39,565 bases of DNA from Escherichia phage vB_EcoP_ZX5, in the sequence record MW722083.1; one strand, given 5' to 3'. This document shows, one piece after another, positions 2,542 through 22,433 of this stretch (its first letter is position 1; the number at the start of each line of letters is the position of its first letter). The notes below the pieces were generated by a model. The model was not told the origin of the DNA. It saw nothing but the letters and a program-made list of their open reading frames with translations, and did not search any database. A program made the position numbers and the translations under genes.

Positions 2542-5500
2542 ATGACGGTCTCAACCGAAGTTGACCACAACGAATACACCGGTAACGGCGTTACGACATC
2601 GTTTCCGTATACTTTTCGAATTTTCAGAAAATCAGACCTGGTTGTTCAGGTGTCTGACCTGAACGGGAACGTAACAGAATTGGTTCTGGATACCGGTTAT
2701 ACGGTAACTGGGGCGGGCACTTATAGTGGCGGTTCTGTGGTTCTTCCGTCTCCGCTTGCTACTGGATGGCGAATTACGATAGATCGTGTGCTTGATGTAG
2801 TGCAGGAGACAGACCTTCGCAATCAGGGAAAATTTTTCCCCGAAGTGCATGAAGATGCCTTTGACTACCTGACGATGCTGATCCAGCAATGTTTTGGGTG
2901 GTTCAGACGTGCATTGATGAAACCATCTTTGCTTGCAAAATATTACGATGCAAAGCAAAACAAAATTTCTAACCTTGCAGATCCATCATTTGAGCAGGAC
3001 GCTGTAAATAATCGCTCAATGCGTAATTATGTCGATGCTGCAATCGCCGGGGTTGTTGGTGGTTTTGGTTGGTTTATTCAGTATGGTTCTGGGGCTGTGT
3101 ACCGAACGTTCCAGGATAAAATGCGTGATGCTATTAGCCCCAAAGATTTTGGAGCTGTTGGTGATGGTATAAATGACGATTCCACTGCAATAAGCGCGTG
3201 CCTTGAAGCCTCATCTCCAGGTTATAAAATTGACGGATTAGGGCTTACTTTTAAAGTATCAACTCTTCCGGATGTCAGTCGATTTAAAAATGCTCGTTTT
3301 TTATTTGAGAGAATACCGGGCCAGCCTCTTTTTTATGCTTCTGAAGATTTTATCCAGGGAGAGTTATTTAAAATTACAGATACACCGTGGTACAACGCCT
3401 GGACGCAGGATAAAACGTTTGTATATGACAATGTCATCTATGCGCCTTTTATGGCTGGAGACCGCCATGGTGTAAATAACCTCCATGTTGCATGGGTTCG
3501 CTCAGGAGATGACGGGAAGACCTGGACAACGCCGGAATGGCTTACAGATTTACATGAAAACTATCCCACAGTTAACTATCACTGTATGAGTATGGGGGTT
3601 GTCAGAAATCGCCTTTTTGCTGTAATTGAGACGCGGACCGTGAGAGGAAATAAACTGCAGGTTGCAGAGTTGTGGGATCGCCCAATGAGTCGCAGCCTTC
3701 GCGTTTATGGTGGTATAACGAAAGCAGCAAATCAGCAAGTCGCTTATATTCGCATTACTGATCACGGATTATTTGCTGGTGATTTTGTCAACTTCTCAAA
3801 CTCTGGTGTTACAGGTGTTACCGGGAATATGACGGTGACTACTGTTATTGATAAAAATACTTTTACAGTTACGACGCAAAATACCCAGGATGTGGATCAG
3901 AATAACGAGGGTAGATACTGGAGTTTTGGTACATCATTTCACTCGTCACCATGGAGAAAAACCAGTCTTGGAACTATTCCTTCTTTTGTTGACGGAAGCA
4001 CTCCTGTTACTGAGATTCACAGTTTTGCGACGATTAGCGATAACAGTTTTGCTGTTGGCTACCATAATGGTGATATTGGTCCACGCGAGCTTGGGATACT
4101 CTATTTCTCTGATGCTTTCGGTTCTCCTGGTAGCTTTGTTCGCAGACGCATACCTGCAGAATATGAGGCGAATGCATCTGAGCCATGTGTAAAATATTAT
4201 GATGGCATTCTGTATCTGACGACCAGGGGGACATTAAGTACTCAACCCGGTAGTTCATTGCACAGAAGCTCTGATTTAGGTACATCATGGAATTCTCTTC
4301 GCTTCCCAAATAATGTTCATCACTCAAACCTTCCTTTTGCCAAAGTTGGCGATGAGCTGATTATTTTTGGCAGTGAGCGCGCATTTGGTGAGTGGGAAGG
4401 AGGAGAACCTGATAACCGTTATGCAGGAAATTATCCAAGAACATTTATGACCAGAGTTAACGTCAATGAGTGGAGTCTGGATAATGTAGAGTGGGTTAAT
4501 GTTACTGATCAGATTTATCAGGGCGGAATAGTTAACTCTGCGGTTGGTGTTGGTTCAGTTTGTATCAAAGACAACTGGCTGTACTACATTTTCGGTGGGG
4601 AAGACTTTCTAAACCCATGGAGCATAGGGGATAACAACAGAAAATATCCTTATGTTCACGATGGTCACCCGGCTGATTTGTATTGTTTCAGGGTGAAAAT
4701 TAAACAGGAAGAATTTGTTTCAAGGGATTTTGTCTACGGAGCCACTCCTAACAGAACGCTTCCTACTTTTATGTCGACGTCAGGCGTGAGGACGGTTCCT
4801 GTACCCGTTGATTTCACAGATGATGTTGCCGTCCAGTCACTGACTGTCCATGCAGGTACATCAGGACAAGTTCGCGCGGAAGTCAAACTTGAGGGTAATT
4901 ACGCCATTATTGCGAAGAAAGTACCGTCTGATGATGTTACCGCTCAGAGATTAATCGTTAGCGGCGGTGAAACAACGTCTTCAGCAGATGGTGCAATGAT
5001 AACGTTGCATGGTTCCGGAAGCAGTACTCCACGTCGCGCGGTATATAACGCACTCGAACATCTTTTTGAGAACGGAGATGTTAAACCTTATCTTGATAAT
5101 GTAAATGCTCTTGGTGGTCCGGGAAACAGGTTCTCGACAGTTTATCTTGGCTCCAATCCTGTGGTTACCAGTGACGGAACATTAAAGACAGAGCCGGTCT
5201 CTCCTGACGAAGCATTGCTGGATGCCTGGGGTGACGTCAGGTATATCGCTTATAAATGGCTGAACGCTGTCGCTATAAAGGGGGAAGAAGGGGCGAGGAT
5301 ACATCATGGTGTAATCGCGCAGCAACTTCGTGATGTTCTTATTTCTCACGGACTCATGGAAGAAGAAAGCACAACATGCCGCTATGCCTTTCTTTGCTAT
5401 GACGATTATCCCGCAGTATATGATGACGTCATTACTGGCCAAAGGGAAATGCCGCTGACTGATAATGACGGGAGCATCATTGTTGATGAGGATGATAATC

Positions 5501-5661
5501 CAGTGATGGTAATGGAAGACATCATTGAGCGCGTTGAAATAACGCCAGCAGGATCTAGATGGGGGGTCAGACCTGATCTCTTATTCTATATCGAGGCAGC
5601 ATGGCAGCGCAGAGAAATGGATAAGATAAAAGAGCGGATTCAGTCTCTGGAAGAACGTTAA
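2542..5661 (+). CDS. tailspike: T7 gp17-like N-terminal anchor, pectate-lyase-like beta-helix signature, C-terminal S74-type intramolecular chaperone domain
   Basis: 1039-aa ORF with GGAGA SD; N-terminus GNGVTTSFPYTFRIFRKSDLVVQV; central DFGAVGDGINDDSTAI motif; C-terminal chaperone-like block. Confidence 0.85.
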   Translation: MTVSTEVDHNEYTGNGVTTSFPYTFRIFRKSDLVVQVSDLNGNVTELVLDTGYTVTGAGTYSGGSVVLPSPLATGWRITIDRVLDVVQETDLRNQGKFFPEVHEDAFDYLTMLIQQCFGWFRRALMKPSLLAKYYDAKQNKISNLADPSFEQDAVNNRSMRNYVDAAIAGVVGGFGWFIQYGSGAVYRTFQDKMRDAISPKDFGAVGDGINDDSTAISACLEASSPGYKIDGLGLTFKVSTLPDVSRFKNARFLFERIPGQPLFYASEDFIQGELFKITDTPWYNAWTQDKTFVYDNVIYAPFMAGDRHGVNNLHVAWVRSGDDGKTWTTPEWLTDLHENYPTVNYHCMSMGVVRNRLFAVIETRTVRGNKLQVAELWDRPMSRSLRVYGGITKAANQQVAYIRITDHGLFAGDFVNFSNSGVTGVTGNMTVTTVIDKNTFTVTTQNTQDVDQNNEGRYWSFGTSFHSSPWRKTSLGTIPSFVDGSTPVTEIHSFATISDNSFAVGYHNGDIGPRELGILYFSDAFGSPGSFVRRRIPAEYEANASEPCVKYYDGILYLTTRGTLSTQPGSSLHRSSDLGTSWNSLRFPNNVHHSNLPFAKVGDELIIFGSERAFGEWEGGEPDNRYAGNYPRTFMTRVNVNEWSLDNVEWVNVTDQIYQGGIVNSAVGVGSVCIKDNWLYYIFGGEDFLNPWSIGDNNRKYPYVHDGHPADLYCFRVKIKQEEFVSRDFVYGATPNRTLPTFMSTSGVRTVPVPVDFTDDVAVQSLTVHAGTSGQVRAEVKLEGNYAIIAKKVPSDDVTAQRLIVSGGETTSSADGAMITLHGSGSSTPRRAVYNALEHLFENGDVKPYLDNVNALGGPGNRFSTVYLGSNPVVTSDGTLKTEPVSPDEALLDAWGDVRYIAYKWLNAVAIKGEEGARIHHGVIAQQLRDVLISHGLMEEESTTCRYAFLCYDDYPAVYDDVITGQREMPLTDNDGSIIVDEDDNPVMVMEDIIERVEITPAGSRWGVRPDLLFYIEAAWQRREMDKIKERIQSLEER

Positions 5662-6667: not shown

Positions 6668-7286
6668 ACAATTCCAGCGAGCTGCTGGTATCAGCGAGGC
6701 ACTGGCCGCACGCTGGTTCTCGCATATAACTTCTGCGATGAAAGAGTTTGGTATCAGCAAAGCAGAAGATCAGGCAATGTTTATTGCTCAAGTCGGGCAT
6801 GAGTCTGGGGGCTTCACCAGGTTGCAGGAGAATTTCAACTACAGTGTCAGCGGACTGGCTAACTTCGTTCGGGCTGGGCGTCTCACTCAGGGGCAGGCTA
6901 ATGCACTGGGGCGCCGTGCTGGTGAACCACCATTGCCACTTGAGCGCCAGCGCGCGATCGCAAATCTGGTATACAGCAAACGCATGGGGAACAATGCCCC
7001 TGGTGATGGCTGGAATTACCGAGGGCGCGGACTTATCCAGATTACCGGTTTGAATAACTATCGTGATTGCGGAAACGGTCTGAAGGTTGACCTGCTGGAG
7101 AGCCCTGAACTGCTGGCGCAGGACGGATATGCGGCTCGTAGCGCGGCGTGGTTCTTCGCCAGCAAAGGATGCATGAAGTATACCGGCGATATTGCACGTG
7201 TAACTCTGATTATCAATGGTGGCCGGAACGGCATCGACGACCGGCGAGCGCGGTACATCACTGCCAGTAAGGTGCTGGCGGTATGA
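6657..7286 (+). CDS. endolysin, glycoside hydrolase family 19 (chitinase-like) type
   Basis: 209 aa from ATG 6657 with GAGGT SD; motifs [12 protein letters not shown] and [12 protein letters not shown]; the track start 6492 is an unsupported 5' extension. Confidence 0.85.
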
Positions 7287-7765
7287 TCTGGGCATTCGTA
7301 AAAGCATACTGGAAACAGTTTCTTATCGTGGCAGTGCTTGCTGTTCTGGTCATATCAGGAGTGGTTGCCTGGAATATACACGGCAGTCGCCAGTACGATG
7401 CCGGGTATGCTCAGGCGGAAGAAGACCGCAAAGCCGAAGAAGACAAAGTTCGTCAGTACTACGAACAGGAGAAAGTGACCAATGAACGTGAAGCTCAGCA
7501 GAGGATCGACCAGGCGAGCAATGATGCTCTTGATGCTGCCGCTAGCGCTGGCCGGTTGCAGCAACAACTCTTTGCCATCCGTGAGCAGCTCAGGCAGTAT
7601 AACGCCATTGTCGGCGCTGGGTCGTCAGCCGCAGACACCGGAGTTTTGCTTGCCGACGTGCTCAGCAAATCTCTCGAGAGAAACAGACAACTGGCAGAGT
7701 ATGCTGACCGGGCAGCCGAAGCAGGAAGAGTCTGCGAAAAACAGTACGACACTTTGACCAGATAG
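7283..7765 (+). CDS. i-spanin (Rz-like), N-terminal TM plus coiled coil
   Basis: ATGA overlap with endolysin stop; N-terminal [20 protein letters not shown], charged periplasmic coiled coil. Confidence 0.75.
7521..7757 (+). CDS. o-spanin (Rz1-like lipoprotein) nested in the +1 frame of the i-spanin gene
   Basis: [13 protein letters not shown] lipobox, Pro-rich, wholly embedded in 7283..7765. Confidence 0.7.
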   Translation: MMLLMLPLALAGCSNNSLPSVSSSGSITPLSALGRQPQTPEFCLPTCSANLSRETDNWQSMLTGQPKQEESAKNSTTL

Positions 7766-7936
7766 CATGGCATTTTTCATGGTACTGATTTCCGGTGACG
7801 GTATATAAAACGGTACGGAAAAAATTGAGATTTGGAAAAATGTTATCACTCAATTGGTTATGGTTATCGTAAATAATTGAGTGGGAATGATTAACAGCTA
7901 ACTCATAGCAACTCATTCCTATTCAGATACTAATTT

Positions 7937-7969
7937 AACCCTCTGTTTTTACAGAGGGTTTTTGTTTTT
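7937..7969 (+). terminator. strong intrinsic terminator after the lysis cassette
   Basis: 10-bp stem AACCCTCTGT/ACAGAGGGTT, loop TTTT, followed by TTTGTTTTT. Confidence 0.75.
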
Positions 7970-8025
7970 ATGTATTCATTTCTATTCACTCTACACCATA
8001 TTTTTCGTCGGTACAGGTGACGGTA

Positions 8026-8040
8026 TTACCTTAAAGGTAT
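8026..8040. promoter_or_regulatory. palindromic operator-like site TTACCTTAAAGGTAT upstream of int
   Basis: one mismatch to TTACC-N5-GGTAA; abuts the second GGTGACGGTAT repeat. Confidence 0.35.
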
Positions 8041-8082
8041 ACTCTCATACCGTCATGAAAATGGTTTCTATACGGGTGAATT

Positions 8083-9333
8083 GTGCTTACCGATACAAAA
8101 TTAAAAAACCTCAAGCCGCAGGACAAACTGTACAAGGTCTCCGATCGTGACGGGCTGTATGTAGCTGTGCTTACGTCAGGTACGGTCTCGTTTCGCTATG
8201 ACTACCGTATCAACGGTCGCCGCGAAACACTGGTAATCGGGCAGTATGGGCGTGACGGTATCAGTCTGGCAGAAGCGCGAGAAGAACTGATTGCTGCAAA
8301 GAAGCTGCTTAAAGCAGGCCAGTCACCGGCTGCGGCTAAACGTGACGGTATCAAAAAGATTCGTGGTGCTGAGACGTTTGCGGTACATACCGACAGTTAT
8401 ATGAAACACGTCATCCTGGCTGACAGTACCCGCGCAATGAAGCAGGCGGTGATCGACCGTGACATACTTCCTGTTCTTGGCAACAAAATGATGGCTGAAA
8501 TTACCACATCGATGGTTCGTGATTTGTGTGACCGGATTGTCGAACGCGGTGGTCGGGCAACAGCAGTGCAGGCCAGGGAGATCATCAGCAGCGTATACCG
8601 TCACGCCAATGACCGTGGTCATGGTTTGTTTAATCCTGCGGCTGACATTAAACCTTCGTCTATCGCCATATTTAAACCACGAGAGCGAACACTGACACCA
8701 GAAGAAATTGGCCTGTTCTTCCGCACGCTGGATGCCATTGGTGCTATGGGCACTATGAAAATGGCTTTAAAGCTGGTGCTTATCACTATGGTTCGTAAAG
8801 GCGAATTCACCAATGCAACGTGGGACGAAATAGATTTTAAAAAATGGACATGGACAATTCCTTCAGACCGCATGAAGGGAAGCCGGGCGCACGTTATTTA
8901 CCTGCCTAAACAGGCACAGGATATATTGGTCGGGTTGCAGATGTGCGCTGGTGGAAGTGAATATCTGGTTCCTGGTCGTTACAACTTCCGGAAGCCATTA
9001 TCTAATGCCGCGCTGAACTCTCTGATCGACAGAACGGTGAAAATAATAAATGAAGATGGTGAGCATATTCAGGACTTCACTGTACATGATATGCGCCGTA
9101 CAGCCAGTACGTTGTTGCATGAGGCTGGTTATCCTTCAGACTGGATTGAAAAGGCTCTGGCACATGAGCAGAAAGGTGTGCGCGCCGTATATAACAAAGC
9201 GGAATACGCCAGACAGCGCGCCTACATGTTGCAGCAGTGGGCCGATATGATTGATTCCTGGATTAACGGGGAGCATACGGATCTGATTCCGTTCTCCCCG
9301 TCGAAGTTTGAGAAGTGGATGGCGGGGGAATAA
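8083..9333 (+). CDS. int: tyrosine integrase, P4-type
   Basis: 416-aa ORF with GTG start; N-terminus LTDTKLKNLKPQDKLYKVSDRDGLYVAV typical of P4-like integrases; C-terminal HxxR...Y catalytic region. Confidence 0.85.
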   Translation: MLTDTKLKNLKPQDKLYKVSDRDGLYVAVLTSGTVSFRYDYRINGRRETLVIGQYGRDGISLAEAREELIAAKKLLKAGQSPAAAKRDGIKKIRGAETFAVHTDSYMKHVILADSTRAMKQAVIDRDILPVLGNKMMAEITTSMVRDLCDRIVERGGRATAVQAREIISSVYRHANDRGHGLFNPAADIKPSSIAIFKPRERTLTPEEIGLFFRTLDAIGAMGTMKMALKLVLITMVRKGEFTNATWDEIDFKKWTWTIPSDRMKGSRAHVIYLPKQAQDILVGLQMCAGGSEYLVPGRYNFRKPLSNAALNSLIDRTVKIINEDGEHIQDFTVHDMRRTASTLLHEAGYPSDWIEKALAHEQKGVRAVYNKAEYARQRAYMLQQWADMIDSWINGEHTDLIPFSPSKFEKWMAGE

Positions 9334-9336
9334 CGT

Positions 9337-9531
9337 TTAATTATTCTGCTGATTTTCTTCCATCTCGGCTTCTGCTGCCAGTGATTCAATTTTATCTGCG
9401 AATATTGCTGACAGTGTTGCAAATTCAGCATCAGTGACAGCGGGAATTGGAACAAACCTGATCCCGCTGTGTGCAAGCATGTTTGCAGTTTCAAGGCATT
9501 TCCTTAAATCTGCTGGTGATGCCCGGTTCAT
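9337..9531 (-). CDS. small acidic hypothetical protein, translationally coupled to the methyltransferase
   Basis: 64 aa; its ATG 9531 overlaps the MTase stop as ATGA; acidic C-terminus. Confidence 0.4.
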   Translation of the reverse strand: MNRASPADLRKCLETANMLAHSGIRFVPIPAVTDAEFATLSAIFADKIESLAAEAEMEENQQNN

Positions 9532-10579: not shown

Positions 10580-10828
10580 TCATGCAGCGTTGCTCACGGG
10601 ACGATATACACGTTGCTGAACAGGAGGTTTTTTACCCTGGAACTCTGCCGGACTTGCTGCCTGACGTTCATCAAGCCAACGCTCAACTTCGTCACGGTTC
10701 CATGCGCAGCGTTTGTCAGTGATATACCAGCGTTTAGGAAATTCCCCTGCGCGCTCCATACGGTCGATAGTGCTCCATGACAGTGGCACCACCGCCAGGA
10801 GTTCCTTCTTACCTAATGCACCTTTCAT
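10580..10828 (-). CDS. AlpA-family HTH regulator / candidate excisionase
   Basis: 82 aa; LSWSTIDRMERAGEFPKRWYITDKRCAWNRDEVERWL matches the AlpA-type pattern; AGAGAGG SD. Confidence 0.7.
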   Translation of the reverse strand: MKGALGKKELLAVVPLSWSTIDRMERAGEFPKRWYITDKRCAWNRDEVERWLDERQAASPAEFQGKKPPVQQRVYRPVSNAA

Positions 10829-13181: not shown

Positions 13182-13766
13182 TTATTGTTTGTTTTTTTCG
13201 TTCTGGTTGATGACAAATTCAATGTAACTTTCGATCTTTGCTTTCTCGGTTTCGGGTAACAATGCGTAGCGCGAGCGGTCATAGTTGATGGTCGCAGGGT
13301 CGTGCGGGTGAATCAGTAATTCATAGCCGTGACGCCCGAATGCGGATGCAACATTCTCCAGGGTGGAAATGGAAACGCTGACCTCATTGTTTAACAGGCG
13401 ACTGATTGTCACCTGGGCGACGCCGGATGCGCGGTGAAGTTTTCCCTGCGTTGAAAGGTCGCGGCTTTCGCTCATCCAGCGTTCCAGGTTGTGAGCCGCC
13501 AGCTGACCTATATCGCTCGGGCCGACAGGCTGAAAACCTTCCTGAGAAAGCGAGCGATCGATATCAAGCCAGTTACGTGGTTTATTGGCGGCAGCTTCAA
13601 TTTTTCGCGCAACCTGGTCGCCGATAACCTTCTTGCCAAGAGCCCAGCGGTTTACCAGATTTGCCTGAGTTCCAAGTTTTTCTGCCATCCGCGTCTGAAC
13701 ACCATTGAATTCACGGTCGATCAAGTCGTTGAGATTTTGCCTGCGGACGTCCTGGATACTTTTCAT
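13182..13766 (-). CDS. repressor with two helix-turn-helix motifs (tandem HTH)
   Basis: 194 aa; HTH-like QTRMAEKLGTQANLVNRWALGKK and SGVAQVTISRLLNNEVSVSISTLENVASAF; divergent from the cro-like gene across an operator-rich spacer. Confidence 0.65.
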   Translation of the reverse strand: MKSIQDVRRQNLNDLIDREFNGVQTRMAEKLGTQANLVNRWALGKKVIGDQVARKIEAAANKPRNWLDIDRSLSQEGFQPVGPSDIGQLAAHNLERWMSESRDLSTQGKLHRASGVAQVTISRLLNNEVSVSISTLENVASAFGRHGYELLIHPHDPATINYDRSRYALLPETEKAKIESYIEFVINQNEKNKQ

Positions 13767-22356: not shown

Positions 22357-22433
22357 TGGCGTGGCATGCAGGATTCGAACCTGCGACCAACCGCTTAGAA
22401 GGCGGTTGCTCTGTCCAGCTGAGCTAATGCCAC
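22357..22433 (-). tRNA. tRNA-Arg (anticodon UCU), CCA encoded
   Basis: 77 nt; acceptor GTGGCAT/ATGCCAC, D-arm GCTC...GAGC, anticodon arm ACCGC-CTTCTAA-GCGGT, T-arm GCAGG-TTCGAAT-CCTGC, discriminator G, CCA. Confidence 0.85.

Follow-up and report, generated by a model that had tools for sequence, protein, structure and literature searches.

The spacer upstream of int in Escherichia phage vB_EcoP_ZX5 as an attP site for insertion at the 3′ end of guaA

The genome of Escherichia phage vB_EcoP_ZX5 (MW722083.1), analysed here as a single window of 39,565 nucleotides, holds a gap between its lysis genes and int. Does this gap contain the phage attachment site, and which of its repeats and palindromes could take part in integration or in the control of int? 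The gap between the stop of an Rz-like gene and the start of int is exactly 317 bp long (7766-8082), as described in a first-pass annotation of the sequence, and its flanks are a DUF2514 gene and an int gene with a GTG start. That annotation had proposed a candidate attP on the basis of an inverted repeat, a direct repeat, a strong terminator and an operator-like palindrome, all of which were found at the coordinates given. The G+C content of the spacer is 34%, compared with 49% for the whole window. Taken singly, its repeats are only mildly unusual: when the 317 bp were dinucleotide-shuffled 1,000 times, 1.8% of the shuffled sequences contained an exact direct repeat of at least 11 bp, and 4% an exact inverted repeat of at least 9 bp with a spacer of 3-40 bp. 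An Rfam scan of 7500-8400 yielded no match near any gathering score, and a known RNA element in the spacer was therefore rejected. The genes that concern this question are:

7283-7765: Rz-like gene (DUF2514), the last gene 5′ of the spacer
8083-9333, plus strand: int, tyrosine integrase of 416 aa with a GTG start and an arm-binding N-terminal domain
10580-10828, minus strand: candidate excisionase of the AlpA/Vis family, 82 aa, a candidate recombination directionality factor

The integrase matches the Pfam families Arm-DNA-bind_3 (residues 2-87, 3.9e-20), Phage_int_M and Phage_integrase (1.4e-19). Its PDB matches include the arm-binding domains 3JU0 (2.5e-12) and 3JTZ (3.6e-11) as well as lambda Int (1Z19 and 1Z1B, about 3e-4). 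Candidate catalytic residues R238, K265, H335, R338, H361 and Y370 were read by inspection from the motifs VRKGE, MKGSR, HDMRRT, LAHE and RAVY. Such a protein would work in the manner of lambda Int, with two DNA specificities, its catalytic and core-binding domains acting at the core. The AlpA/Vis-like protein, which matches Pfam Phage_AlpA (3.1e-5) and PHROG 66, ‘excisionase and transcriptional regulator’ (2e-16), probably directs excision. As the first-pass annotation had argued, there is no room for attP 3′ of int, because int stops at 9333 and the DUF1382 open reading frame on the opposite strand ends at 9337.

Prophage junctions map to the spacer. Among 5,426 complete E. coli genomes, about 567 have junctions that break inside it. 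When 40 rows were sampled across 570 matching records, the E. coli chromosome match on the int side began at 7876 in 38, with guaA annotated beneath, and on the Rz side the match stopped at 7892 in 33 of 40 sampled rows. Phage records derived from prophages likewise begin or end at 7876 or 7892, and a natural tandem double lysogen (attL-prophage-attP-prophage-attR) was found. Base-by-base comparison of a lysogen (NZ_CP027582.1) with the empty site of MG1655 showed that 17 bp are common to attP, attB, attL and attR, locating the core that the first-pass annotation had left to a comparison of attL and attR. The crossover must fall inside 7876-7892. That attP instead lies elsewhere in the genome, the spacer holding only terminator and promoter signals, is refuted by these junctions together with published junction sequencing (PMC9782041), and no support for it was found.

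7876-7892, plus strand: attP core ATTGAGTGGGAATGATT, 17 bp, identical to attB, from comparison of attP, attL, attR and attB

The core consists of the last four codons of guaA (I-E-W-E), its TGA stop codon and TT; the target is therefore a gene for a protein and not for a tRNA. This bears out the earlier remarks that no tRNA-like segment was obvious and that the target might not be a tRNA gene. No tRNA gene lies in or near the spacer, the only one in the window being at 22357-22433, and a tRNA-like target was rejected, as the att comparison gives the end of guaA. The coding sequence at attL equals that at attB through the stop codon, so that the guaA reading frame is fully kept. In both NZ_CP027582.1 and NZ_CM142779.1 the prophage sits between guaA and yfgI, and guaA is annotated at full length. 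Inspection of 7876-7892 in attP and attB revealed no convincing symmetry of inverted core-type Int sites flanking an overlap of 6-8 bp. By analogy with the guaA-targeting island GIsul2, whose core is GAGTGGGA (PMC9376610), crossover probably takes place in GAGTGGGA at 7879-7886.

The best explanation overall, to which we assign a probability of roughly 0.9, is that the spacer is the attP of a phiV10/epsilon15-like temperate podophage (Uetakevirus). The attP site, its 17-bp core and its guaA target are already published for ZX5 and its relatives. The published report on vB_EcoP_ZX5 (39,565 bp) places the core attgagtgggaatgatt 190 bp upstream of int and at the guaA 3′ end (PMC9782041, Pathogens 2022), a distance reproduced here (8083 - 7892 - 1 = 190). 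In that study attB, attL and attR were verified by PCR and Sanger sequencing, and phiV10 and epsilon15 are stated to have the same core (PMC9782041). Because it has already been shown by experiment, the attP finding is correct but ordinary. Arm-type sites, IHF sites, the guaA-like terminator, an operator at int and an excisionase are not discussed in that report (PMC9782041). The attP model has experimental footing at its core and junctions only; its Int, IHF, repressor and AlpA-like sites we infer from sequence. The value of the analysis lies in a precise map of sites for the engineering of phages of the phiV10/ZX5 type or of integration vectors for the guaA site. Moreover, a prophage with a ZX5-type att-int module occupies the guaA site in about 10% of complete E. 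coli genomes, which makes this a common insertion hotspot, worth recognising in annotation.

The closest relatives offer a useful comparison. In the phage collection searched, the best match was phiV10 (97%). The spacer of phiV10 (DQ126339.2) is 97% identical to that of ZX5, as is the region 7000-9400, while the corresponding values for epsilon15 (AY150271.2) are 83% and 83%; the core is the same in both, and copies of the repeat GTGACGGTAT stand at the same offsets as in ZX5. These phages differ from ZX5 in hosts and tailspikes, and the epsilon15 repressor is only 42% identical (PMC9782041). The epsilon15 record annotates four ‘integrase’ sites, three IHF sites, a terminator and RNase III hairpins at homologous positions; statements made here about the arm-site and operator content of epsilon15 and phiV10 draw on GenBank annotation and citing papers. 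The islands GIsul2 and CMGI-3, which are not phages, likewise insert at the guaA 3′ end. Their att sites are described as 19 bp, and they are likened to ZX5 here by target site, by core (that of GIsul2 falls within the ZX5 core, at 7879-7886) and by a published cluster, in which the epsilon15 and CMGI-3 integrases together target the guaA 3′ flank (PMC8138268).

The attP-int module extends from about 7781 to at least 8056. Its left boundary is marked by the point near 7781 where homology begins with other guaA-inserted E. coli prophages bearing different Rz-like genes. Conservation within the module was examined in eight related phages, the lowest spacer identity to the window being 77%; 7792-7815 and 7869-7891 are invariant in all eight. 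Besides the core, the module and the adjoining int gene contain the following:

7781-7875, plus strand: P arm of attP, on the lysis-gene side, with its left boundary near 7781
7795-7804, plus strand: candidate arm-type site P1, GTGACGGTAT, 81 bp before the core start
7807-7816, plus strand: weaker second P-arm copy, AAAACGGTAC, its CGGTA 12 bp past that of P1
7893-7936, plus strand: conserved core-proximal P′ arm, containing copy 1 of TCATTYCTATTCA (7913-7925)
7937-7970, plus strand: Rho-independent terminator, a near-copy of the host guaA terminator
7976-7988, plus strand: copy 2 of the direct repeat TCATTYCTATTCA, 63 bp past copy 1 and kept in all eight phages
8005-8026, plus strand: candidate P′ arm-type sites TCGTCGGTAC (8005-8014) and GTGACGGTAT (8017-8026)
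8025-8041, no strand assigned: palindrome ATTACC-TTAAA-GGTATA, the weakest member of a 14-site ATTACC-N5-GGTAAT family
8038-8043: possible -10 hexamer TATACT, overlapping the palindrome
8047-8056, minus strand: inverted copy of the arm motif with one mismatch (ATGACGGTAT)
8252-8261, plus strand: GTGACGGTAT within int (codons R57-D-G-I), possible distal arm-type or regulatory site, ‘integrase’ in epsilon15
8342-8351, plus strand: GTGACGGTAT within int (codons R87-D-G-I), possible distal site, ‘integrase’ in epsilon15

The strong terminator reported in the first pass was recovered as a 10-bp stem (7937-7960) followed by a T run, with an RNA fold of -15.9 kcal/mol (z = -6.1). It matches the E. 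coli guaA terminator at 27 of 29 bases, both differences falling in the loop. Covariation was sought across the eight phages in the three inverted repeats of the spacer and none was found. The terminator stem stays 100% paired in all eight, with two G-U changes, while the other two inverted repeats lose pairs without compensation, and a required RNA structure was rejected for both of these. In the lysogen, the terminator stands 46 nt past the guaA stop and 5′ of int. In the free phage it would end the lysis operon, whose transcripts would thereby stop short of int; after integration it probably stands in for the guaA terminator that has been displaced, and protects int against transcription running on from guaA.

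The arrangement invites comparison with phage lambda, whose attP has the order P1-H1-P2-X-F-H2-C-O-C′-H′-P′1-3 and works with Int, IHF and Xis. Both systems have a tyrosine integrase with a separate arm-binding domain, and in both, repeated arm-type sites, candidate ones in ZX5, flank a short core shared with attB. IHF-like sites by the core, an A+T-rich region adjoining int and a small, separate excisionase candidate would complete the likeness. In contrast to lambda, the ZX5 integrase belongs to the P4-like/IntSXT group, and its Arm-DNA-bind_3 domain has no sequence relationship to the lambda N-domain. Integration takes place at the 3′ end of a protein-coding gene, where phage DNA rebuilds both the gene end and the terminator. 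The ZX5 attP, which includes a terminator and an operator-like site, lies upstream of int, while that of lambda lies downstream. Furthermore, possible sites reach into int, and core-type inverted repeats are not recognisable.

The operator-like palindrome of the first-pass annotation is present as TACCTT-A-AAGGTA at 8027-8039, within the site at 8025-8041. Its simplified form TACC-N5-GGTA occurs at 12 sites, compared with 0.19 expected, and the wider family corresponds to the sites entered as ‘repressor’ protein_bind features for epsilon15. In the window, members of this family precede the tailspike gene, the early-left region and the repressor/cro region, and in the epsilon15 record they also precede the terminase and portal operons. 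The position of the palindrome directly 5′ of int suggests repressor control of int. Lying 44 nt 5′ of the gene, this repressor-operator-like sequence probably puts int under the prophage repressor, which is encoded at 13182-13766. There is nevertheless a substantial chance, a little short of even, that 8025-8041 is not a working operator, that it reflects the packing of alternating GGTA/TACC arm motifs and that int is regulated otherwise. It is the lowest-scoring member of its family, with a right half of GGTATA in place of GGTAAT; four GGTA/TACC units crowd into 8016-8056; and the epsilon15 annotators marked seven repressor sites, omitting the equivalent of this one. In addition, a consensus scan for a sigma-70 promoter of int found none, the best hand-picked candidate (GTGACG, a 15-bp spacer and TATACT) being a weak lead. 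Against this, the site scores 15.1 bits with a weight matrix derived from the remaining 11 sites, well above the 9.0 bits of the best background position. In the eight phages its half-sites are invariant and only the 5 bp between them differ, as would be expected where a protein binds a site made of two parts, and its fellow family members stand ahead of several transcription units. If 8025-8041, which lies between candidate arm-type Int sites, is an operator, repressor bound there could keep int silent in the lysogen and also contend with Int for the P′ arm, in which case excision would be tied directly to repressor inactivation. Confirmation of repressor control would make a small addition to what is understood of induction-excision coupling in this phage group.

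The candidate arm-type sites provide stronger evidence than the single repeats of the spacer. The first pass had noted an 11-bp direct repeat, GGTGACGGTAT, which is indeed present at 7794-7804 and 8016-8026, and had suggested that it might represent arm-type sites. This idea fits the arm-binding N-terminal domain of Int, the positions kept in eight relatives and the ‘integrase’ annotation of epsilon15. Both 7795-7804 and 8017-8026 are homologous to ‘integrase’ protein_bind features of that record (AY150271.2). With up to one mismatch, GTGACGGTAT has 11 matches in the window compared with 1.5 expected, a number reached in none of 100 shuffles, and six of the 11 lie within 7795-8604. CGGTA, likewise, has a density of 11.4 per kb over 7700-8750 compared with 2.6 per kb in the whole window. 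In the eight phages the offsets of GTGACGGTAT from the core start are fixed at -81, +141, +376 and +466; the P1 10-mer is exact in all eight, its AAAACGGTAC neighbour falls within an invariant block, GTGACGGTATATAAAACGGTA, and at the P′ arm sites CGGTA and TGACGGTAT are invariant. GTGACGGTAT stands on both flanks of the core (-81 and +141), differs from it, and has weaker CGGTAC partners 12 bp off, the CGGTA units of 8005-8014 and 8017-8026 being spaced like those of the P-arm pair. In the proposed complex, the N-terminal arm-binding domain of Int would hold (GTGA)CGGTA(T) repeats on both arms, in the pairs 7795/7807 and 8005/8017.

It is improbable that GTGACGGTAT instead marks RNA hairpins processed by RNase III, sites of another regulator or a by-product of an RDGI peptide. 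TGACGGTAT (8018-8026) can pair with ATACCGTCA (8047-8055), the segment 8010-8062 folds as RNA at -16.1 kcal/mol (z = -2.9), and the epsilon15 record has ‘RNaseIII’ features over 8018-8055. The copy at 8047-8056, however, is less conserved: it is altered in BUCT554 and Tyrion, and the left copy stays invariant and so does not compensate, which argues against a required hairpin, and the copy at 7795 has no partner nearby. The strong copies all share one orientation and stand at fixed offsets either side of the core, and Int possesses an arm-binding domain. As for the peptide, two copies encode RDGI within the arm-binding domain, but conservation at wobble positions in the int copies exceeds what the protein needs, and epsilon15 has an R57C change with the 10-mer intact.

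The two copies within int deserve separate mention. At 8252-8263 a run of 12 nt, including three wobble positions, is invariant in the eight phages, while degenerate codons are invariant in only 22% of cases; the 10-mer at 8342-8351 is exact in seven of the eight. In the 5′ region of int, five of seven CGGTA copies are invariant compared with 7.5% of 5-nt windows. These statistics for sites within int were computed post hoc, with the motif already noticed. A further GTGACGGTAT copy at 8595-8604 (minus strand) was rejected as a functional site, as it is not conserved in epsilon15, SPN1S, PAT1 and BUCT711. Selection acting on synonymous positions may maintain the sites at 8252 and 8342 as well as an inverted CGGTA pair at 8381-8392; if so, the functional att/regulatory region would be about 600 bp long. 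That the int-proximal arm of attP doubles as a control region for int, combining the operator with Int-type sites inside the gene, is a tentative and rather unlikely extension of the arm-site model. Neither the coupling of P′ arm and operator nor the sites within int were found in the accessible literature, and the operator is also absent from the epsilon15 annotation.

The 9-bp inverted repeat noted in the first pass is real: its arms, CACTCAATT (7847-7855) and AATTGAGTG (7875-7883), are separated by 19 bp and can be extended to 14 nt at 86% complementarity. Its role as a crossover site does not stand. Only the right arm overlaps the core, by 8 bp, and each arm coincides with a match to the IHF consensus:

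7848-7860, plus strand: IHF-consensus-like site ACTCAATTGGTTA, one mismatch to WATCAANNNNTTR, in the left arm of the inverted repeat
7870-7882, minus strand: IHF-consensus-like site ACTCAATTATTTA, overlapping the left end of the core, in the right arm of the inverted repeat

Both positions are annotated as IHF sites in the epsilon15 record. In the left site the conserved columns, TCAAT...TTA.G, are those of the consensus, and it is the outer bases of the inverted repeat that vary. WATCAANNNNTTR has two one-mismatch matches and no exact match here, against a background of about one per kb at up to one mismatch. We read the repeat as two putative IHF sites in inverted orientation, not as a pair of core-type sites; DNA bending at these sites, just left of the core, would help to fold the complex.

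Only a very small chance is left that CACTCAATT and AATTGAGTG are core-type Int sites flanking the crossover region. The repeat is exact over 9 bp, its right arm does overlap the core, and the single strand folds well (z = -4.3). Its 19-bp spacer, by comparison, greatly exceeds the overlap used by tyrosine recombinases, which is 6-8 bp, and the left arm lies outside the identity of attP and attB, without a counterpart in attB. Furthermore, the third pair is broken in four of eight relatives with no compensatory changes, and the conserved positions fit the IHF consensus TCAA-N4-TTA, not the repeat's symmetry. A third IHF site of the epsilon15 record, near the terminator, is not conserved in the window, has no match to the IHF consensus and was not carried over. 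For one IHF-like site to overlap the core, as that at 7870-7882 does, is unusual.

The 317-bp spacer at 7766-8082 exactly fills the interval between the stop codon of an Rz-like gene and the GTG start codon of the integrase gene, int:

7283-7765, Rz-like gene (Pfam DUF2514)
8083-9333, int, GTG start, encoding a 416-aa integrase

The first-pass annotation proposed this spacer as the phage attachment site (attP) and named prophage junctions as the point on which the proposal could fail; the junctions break inside the spacer, not elsewhere. A 651-bp query across the spacer returned 570 matching records (567 of 5,426 complete E. coli genomes). Of 40 rows taken at even intervals along the ranking, 38 have a match that starts at 7876, over guaA and an integrase gene; with a left-shifted query, 33 of 40 rows sampled have a match ending at 7892. 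In the lysogen NZ_CP027582.1, the prophage sits between guaA and yfgI. Alignment of attP with the two prophage ends (attL and attR) and the empty site of MG1655 yields a single common block, ATTGAGTGGGAATGATT, at 7876-7892. This core spans the final four codons of guaA (I-E-W-E), its TGA stop and a further two bases, so guaA is restored intact in attL. Several prophage-derived phage records begin or finish at 7876 or 7892.

Experiments on ZX5 and its relatives have already established the attachment site together with its core and target, and the finding is thus a known one. The published attP core of ZX5 is attgagtgggaatgatt, separated from the downstream integrase gene by 190 bp (PMC9782041), the same distance as in the window, where this 17-mer ends at 7892 and int begins at 8083. 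The attB, attL and attR sites of ZX5 were PCR-amplified and Sanger-sequenced, with the same result as here, and phiV10 and epsilon15 use the same core (PMC9782041). A survey of tyrosine recombinases assigns the epsilon15 integrase cluster to the 3′ flank of guaA (PMC8138268). Both relatives belong to the genus Uetakevirus; over 7000-9400, phiV10 is 97% and epsilon15 83% identical to the window. What may be added here is modest: a map of the site, a copy of the guaA terminator, an IHF reading of the inverted repeat, a putative operator upstream of int and possible intragenic sites.

Uninterrupted attP is present in five genomes in all. One of them, GPEC1337 (NZ_CM142779.1, 1308533-1391459), carries two 99%-identical prophage copies arranged in tandem at guaA at a distance of 41,417 bp. 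An intact attP separates the copies and the outer ends are normal attL and attR, the expected product of integrase-mediated insertion into an existing lysogen. The left edge of the att module lies at ~7781, the point from which guaA prophages carrying other Rz-like genes are homologous. On the attR side of other guaA-inserted prophages, in E. coli FDAARGOS_1077 and UMNK88, the P arm (7781-7892) is kept at ~87-93% identity next to differing Rz-like genes. The att module thus appears to move as one unit among phage backbones. A lead on the crossover position comes from GIsul2, a guaA-targeting island that recombines at GAGTGGGA (PMC9376610). This sequence falls inside the core at 7879-7886, where exchange might also occur in ZX5.

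The features originally described in and around the spacer are all present. These are an inverted repeat with 19-bp spacing (CACTCAATT at 7847-7855, AATTGAGTG at 7875-7883), an 11-bp direct repeat, GGTGACGGTAT, at 7794 and 8016, a terminator with a 10-bp stem (7937-7960) followed by a T run, and an operator-like palindrome, TACCTT-A-AAGGTA, at 8027-8039. There is indeed no room for attP after int, as an opposite-strand ORF ends 3 bp past its stop, and no tRNA gene lies near the spacer. When the spacer was dinucleotide-shuffled 1,000 times, 1.8% of the shuffles contained an exact 11-bp direct repeat and 4% a 9-bp inverted repeat, so each is only mildly unusual alone. The spacer has a G+C content of 34% versus 49% for the whole window, and no Rfam family matches it.

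The terminator closely resembles that of the host gene. Its stem-loop and T run (7937-7965) are identical to the E. coli guaA terminator (MG1655) at 27 of 29 positions, both mismatches falling in the loop, and the stem is fully paired in all eight phages aligned (the window, phiV10, epsilon15, SPN1S, BUCT554, Tyrion, PAT1 and BUCT711). The distance from the guaA stop codon to the stem is 46 nt in the phage versus 26 nt in the host, and the intervening DNA is not homologous. Because the terminator falls between the core and int, integration places it 46 nt past the guaA stop, while the native guaA terminator is displaced to the far prophage end, just past attR. In the free phage, the phage copy would keep lysis-operon transcription from reaching int; in the lysogen, it would end guaA transcripts and insulate int. 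No mention of this likeness was found in the accessible literature. A second direct repeat, TCATTYCTATTCA, is found on either side of the terminator (7913-7925 and 7976-7988) and is kept in all eight phages. Its reverse complement resembles the core at 11 of 13 positions (TGAATAGGAATGA versus TGAGTGGGAATGA).

Extended to 13 nt each, the arms of the inverted repeat match the IHF consensus WATCAANNNNTTR:

7848-7860, plus strand, IHF-like site with one mismatch to WATCAANNNNTTR
7870-7882, minus strand, IHF-like site with one mismatch to WATCAANNNNTTR, overlapping the core

The arms could instead be sites flanking the crossover, but their 19-bp spacer is too wide for the overlap region of a tyrosine recombinase, and the left arm is without a counterpart in attB. 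Moreover, the positions conserved across the eight phages, TCAAT...TTA.G, are those of the IHF consensus, whereas the inverted repeat loses its third pair in four of the eight, with no compensatory changes. From these points we infer two inverted IHF-like sites. The annotators of epsilon15 likewise marked IHF sites at homologous positions.

Pfam divides the integrase into Arm-DNA-bind_3 (aa 2-87), a middle domain and Phage_integrase, the catalytic one. Sequence matches link the N-terminus to the solved arm-binding domains 3JU0 and 3JTZ and the C-terminal half to lambda Int, and inspection identifies candidate catalytic residues R238, K265, H335, R338, H361 and Y370 (motifs VRKGE, MKGSR, HDMRRT, LAHE and RAVY). 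An enzyme with these domains is expected to bind both core and arm sites. A likely excisionase, judged by family resemblance, is an 82-aa AlpA/Vis-like protein that is absent from the text of the ZX5 paper (PMC9782041):

10580-10828, minus strand, candidate excisionase

The 10-mer GTGACGGTAT is a candidate arm-type motif. Allowing up to one mismatch, it has 11 matches in the window versus 1.5 expected, six of them in 7795-8604. In the spacer alignment, the block GTGACGGTATATAAAACGGTA (7795-7815), CGGTA (8009-8013) and TGACGGTAT (8018-8026) are invariant in all eight phages. Each arm holds two same-orientation CGGTA units 12 bp apart (7799/7811 and 8009/8021), and, measured from the start of the core, every one of the eight phages has the 10-mer at -81, +141, +376 and +466, with a one-base shift in BUCT711. 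These data are consistent with arm-type integrase sites. The idea is not new, since the epsilon15 record (AY150271.2) already carries 'integrase' binding-site features at four homologous 10-mers.

Two of these four copies, at 8252 and 8342, are intragenic to int, each encoding R-D-G-I. Across the first 220 codons of int, only 22% of the degenerate codons with an invariant amino acid keep the same sequence in every one of the eight phages. The 12-nt run 8252-8263 is invariant throughout, and epsilon15 carries an R57C substitution yet leaves the 10-mer at 8252 unchanged. Of the 7 CGGTA/TACCG pentamers in the 5′ part of int, 5 are fully invariant; for 5-nt windows in general the figure is 7.5% (binomial P ~4e-5, calculated after the motif had been spotted). 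Together, this provides moderate evidence for selection on the DNA at these two sites. The 8595 copy is not conserved and was rejected as a functional site. Within the initial 660 nt of int, the longest stretch invariant in all eight phages (8381-8394, 14 nt) includes an inverted CGGTA/TACCG pair, CGGTACATACCG. Relative to the solved HPI/HAI7 arm-binding domains, the integrase has a two-residue insertion at aa 56-60 (8248-8262; GRDGISL against P--AVSL) that coincides exactly with an intragenic GTGACGGTAT.

The palindrome at 8027 belongs to a larger family. TACC-N5-GGTA occurs at 12 exact sites in the window versus 0.19 expected; with two near-matches, these form a 14-member ATTACC-N5-GGTAAT family:

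979, 2044, 2424, 8027, 13049, 13111, 13823, 13840, 13871, 14208, 16110, 16172, 19626 and 22757

The sites are concentrated in the repressor/cro region and in front of further transcription units. They match the 'repressor' protein_bind features of the epsilon15 record, which lists ATTACC-N5-GGTAAT sites ahead of several transcription units. The 8027 copy lies between the arm site 8017-8026 and an inverted copy at 8047-8056, and overlaps a -10-like TATACT (8038-8043), 44 nt upstream of the int start codon. Its half-sites are invariant in the eight phages, while its 5-bp spacer varies. Scored with a matrix from the other 11 sites, it reaches 15.1 bits (14th in the genome; next position 9.0). This arrangement suggests that int may have its own repressor-controlled promoter, with three caveats: the 8027 site is the weakest family member, a promoter scan upstream of int found none, and the homologous site is not marked by the epsilon15 annotators.

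Elsewhere, the window encodes a tRNA:

22357-22433, minus strand, tRNA-Arg(TCT) gene

A 1039-aa ORF at 2542-5661 (+) is equal in length to a protein of the near-identical GPEC1337 prophage annotated as 'endosialidase catalytic beta-propeller domain-containing protein'. This agrees with the K1 host reported for ZX5 (PMC9782041).
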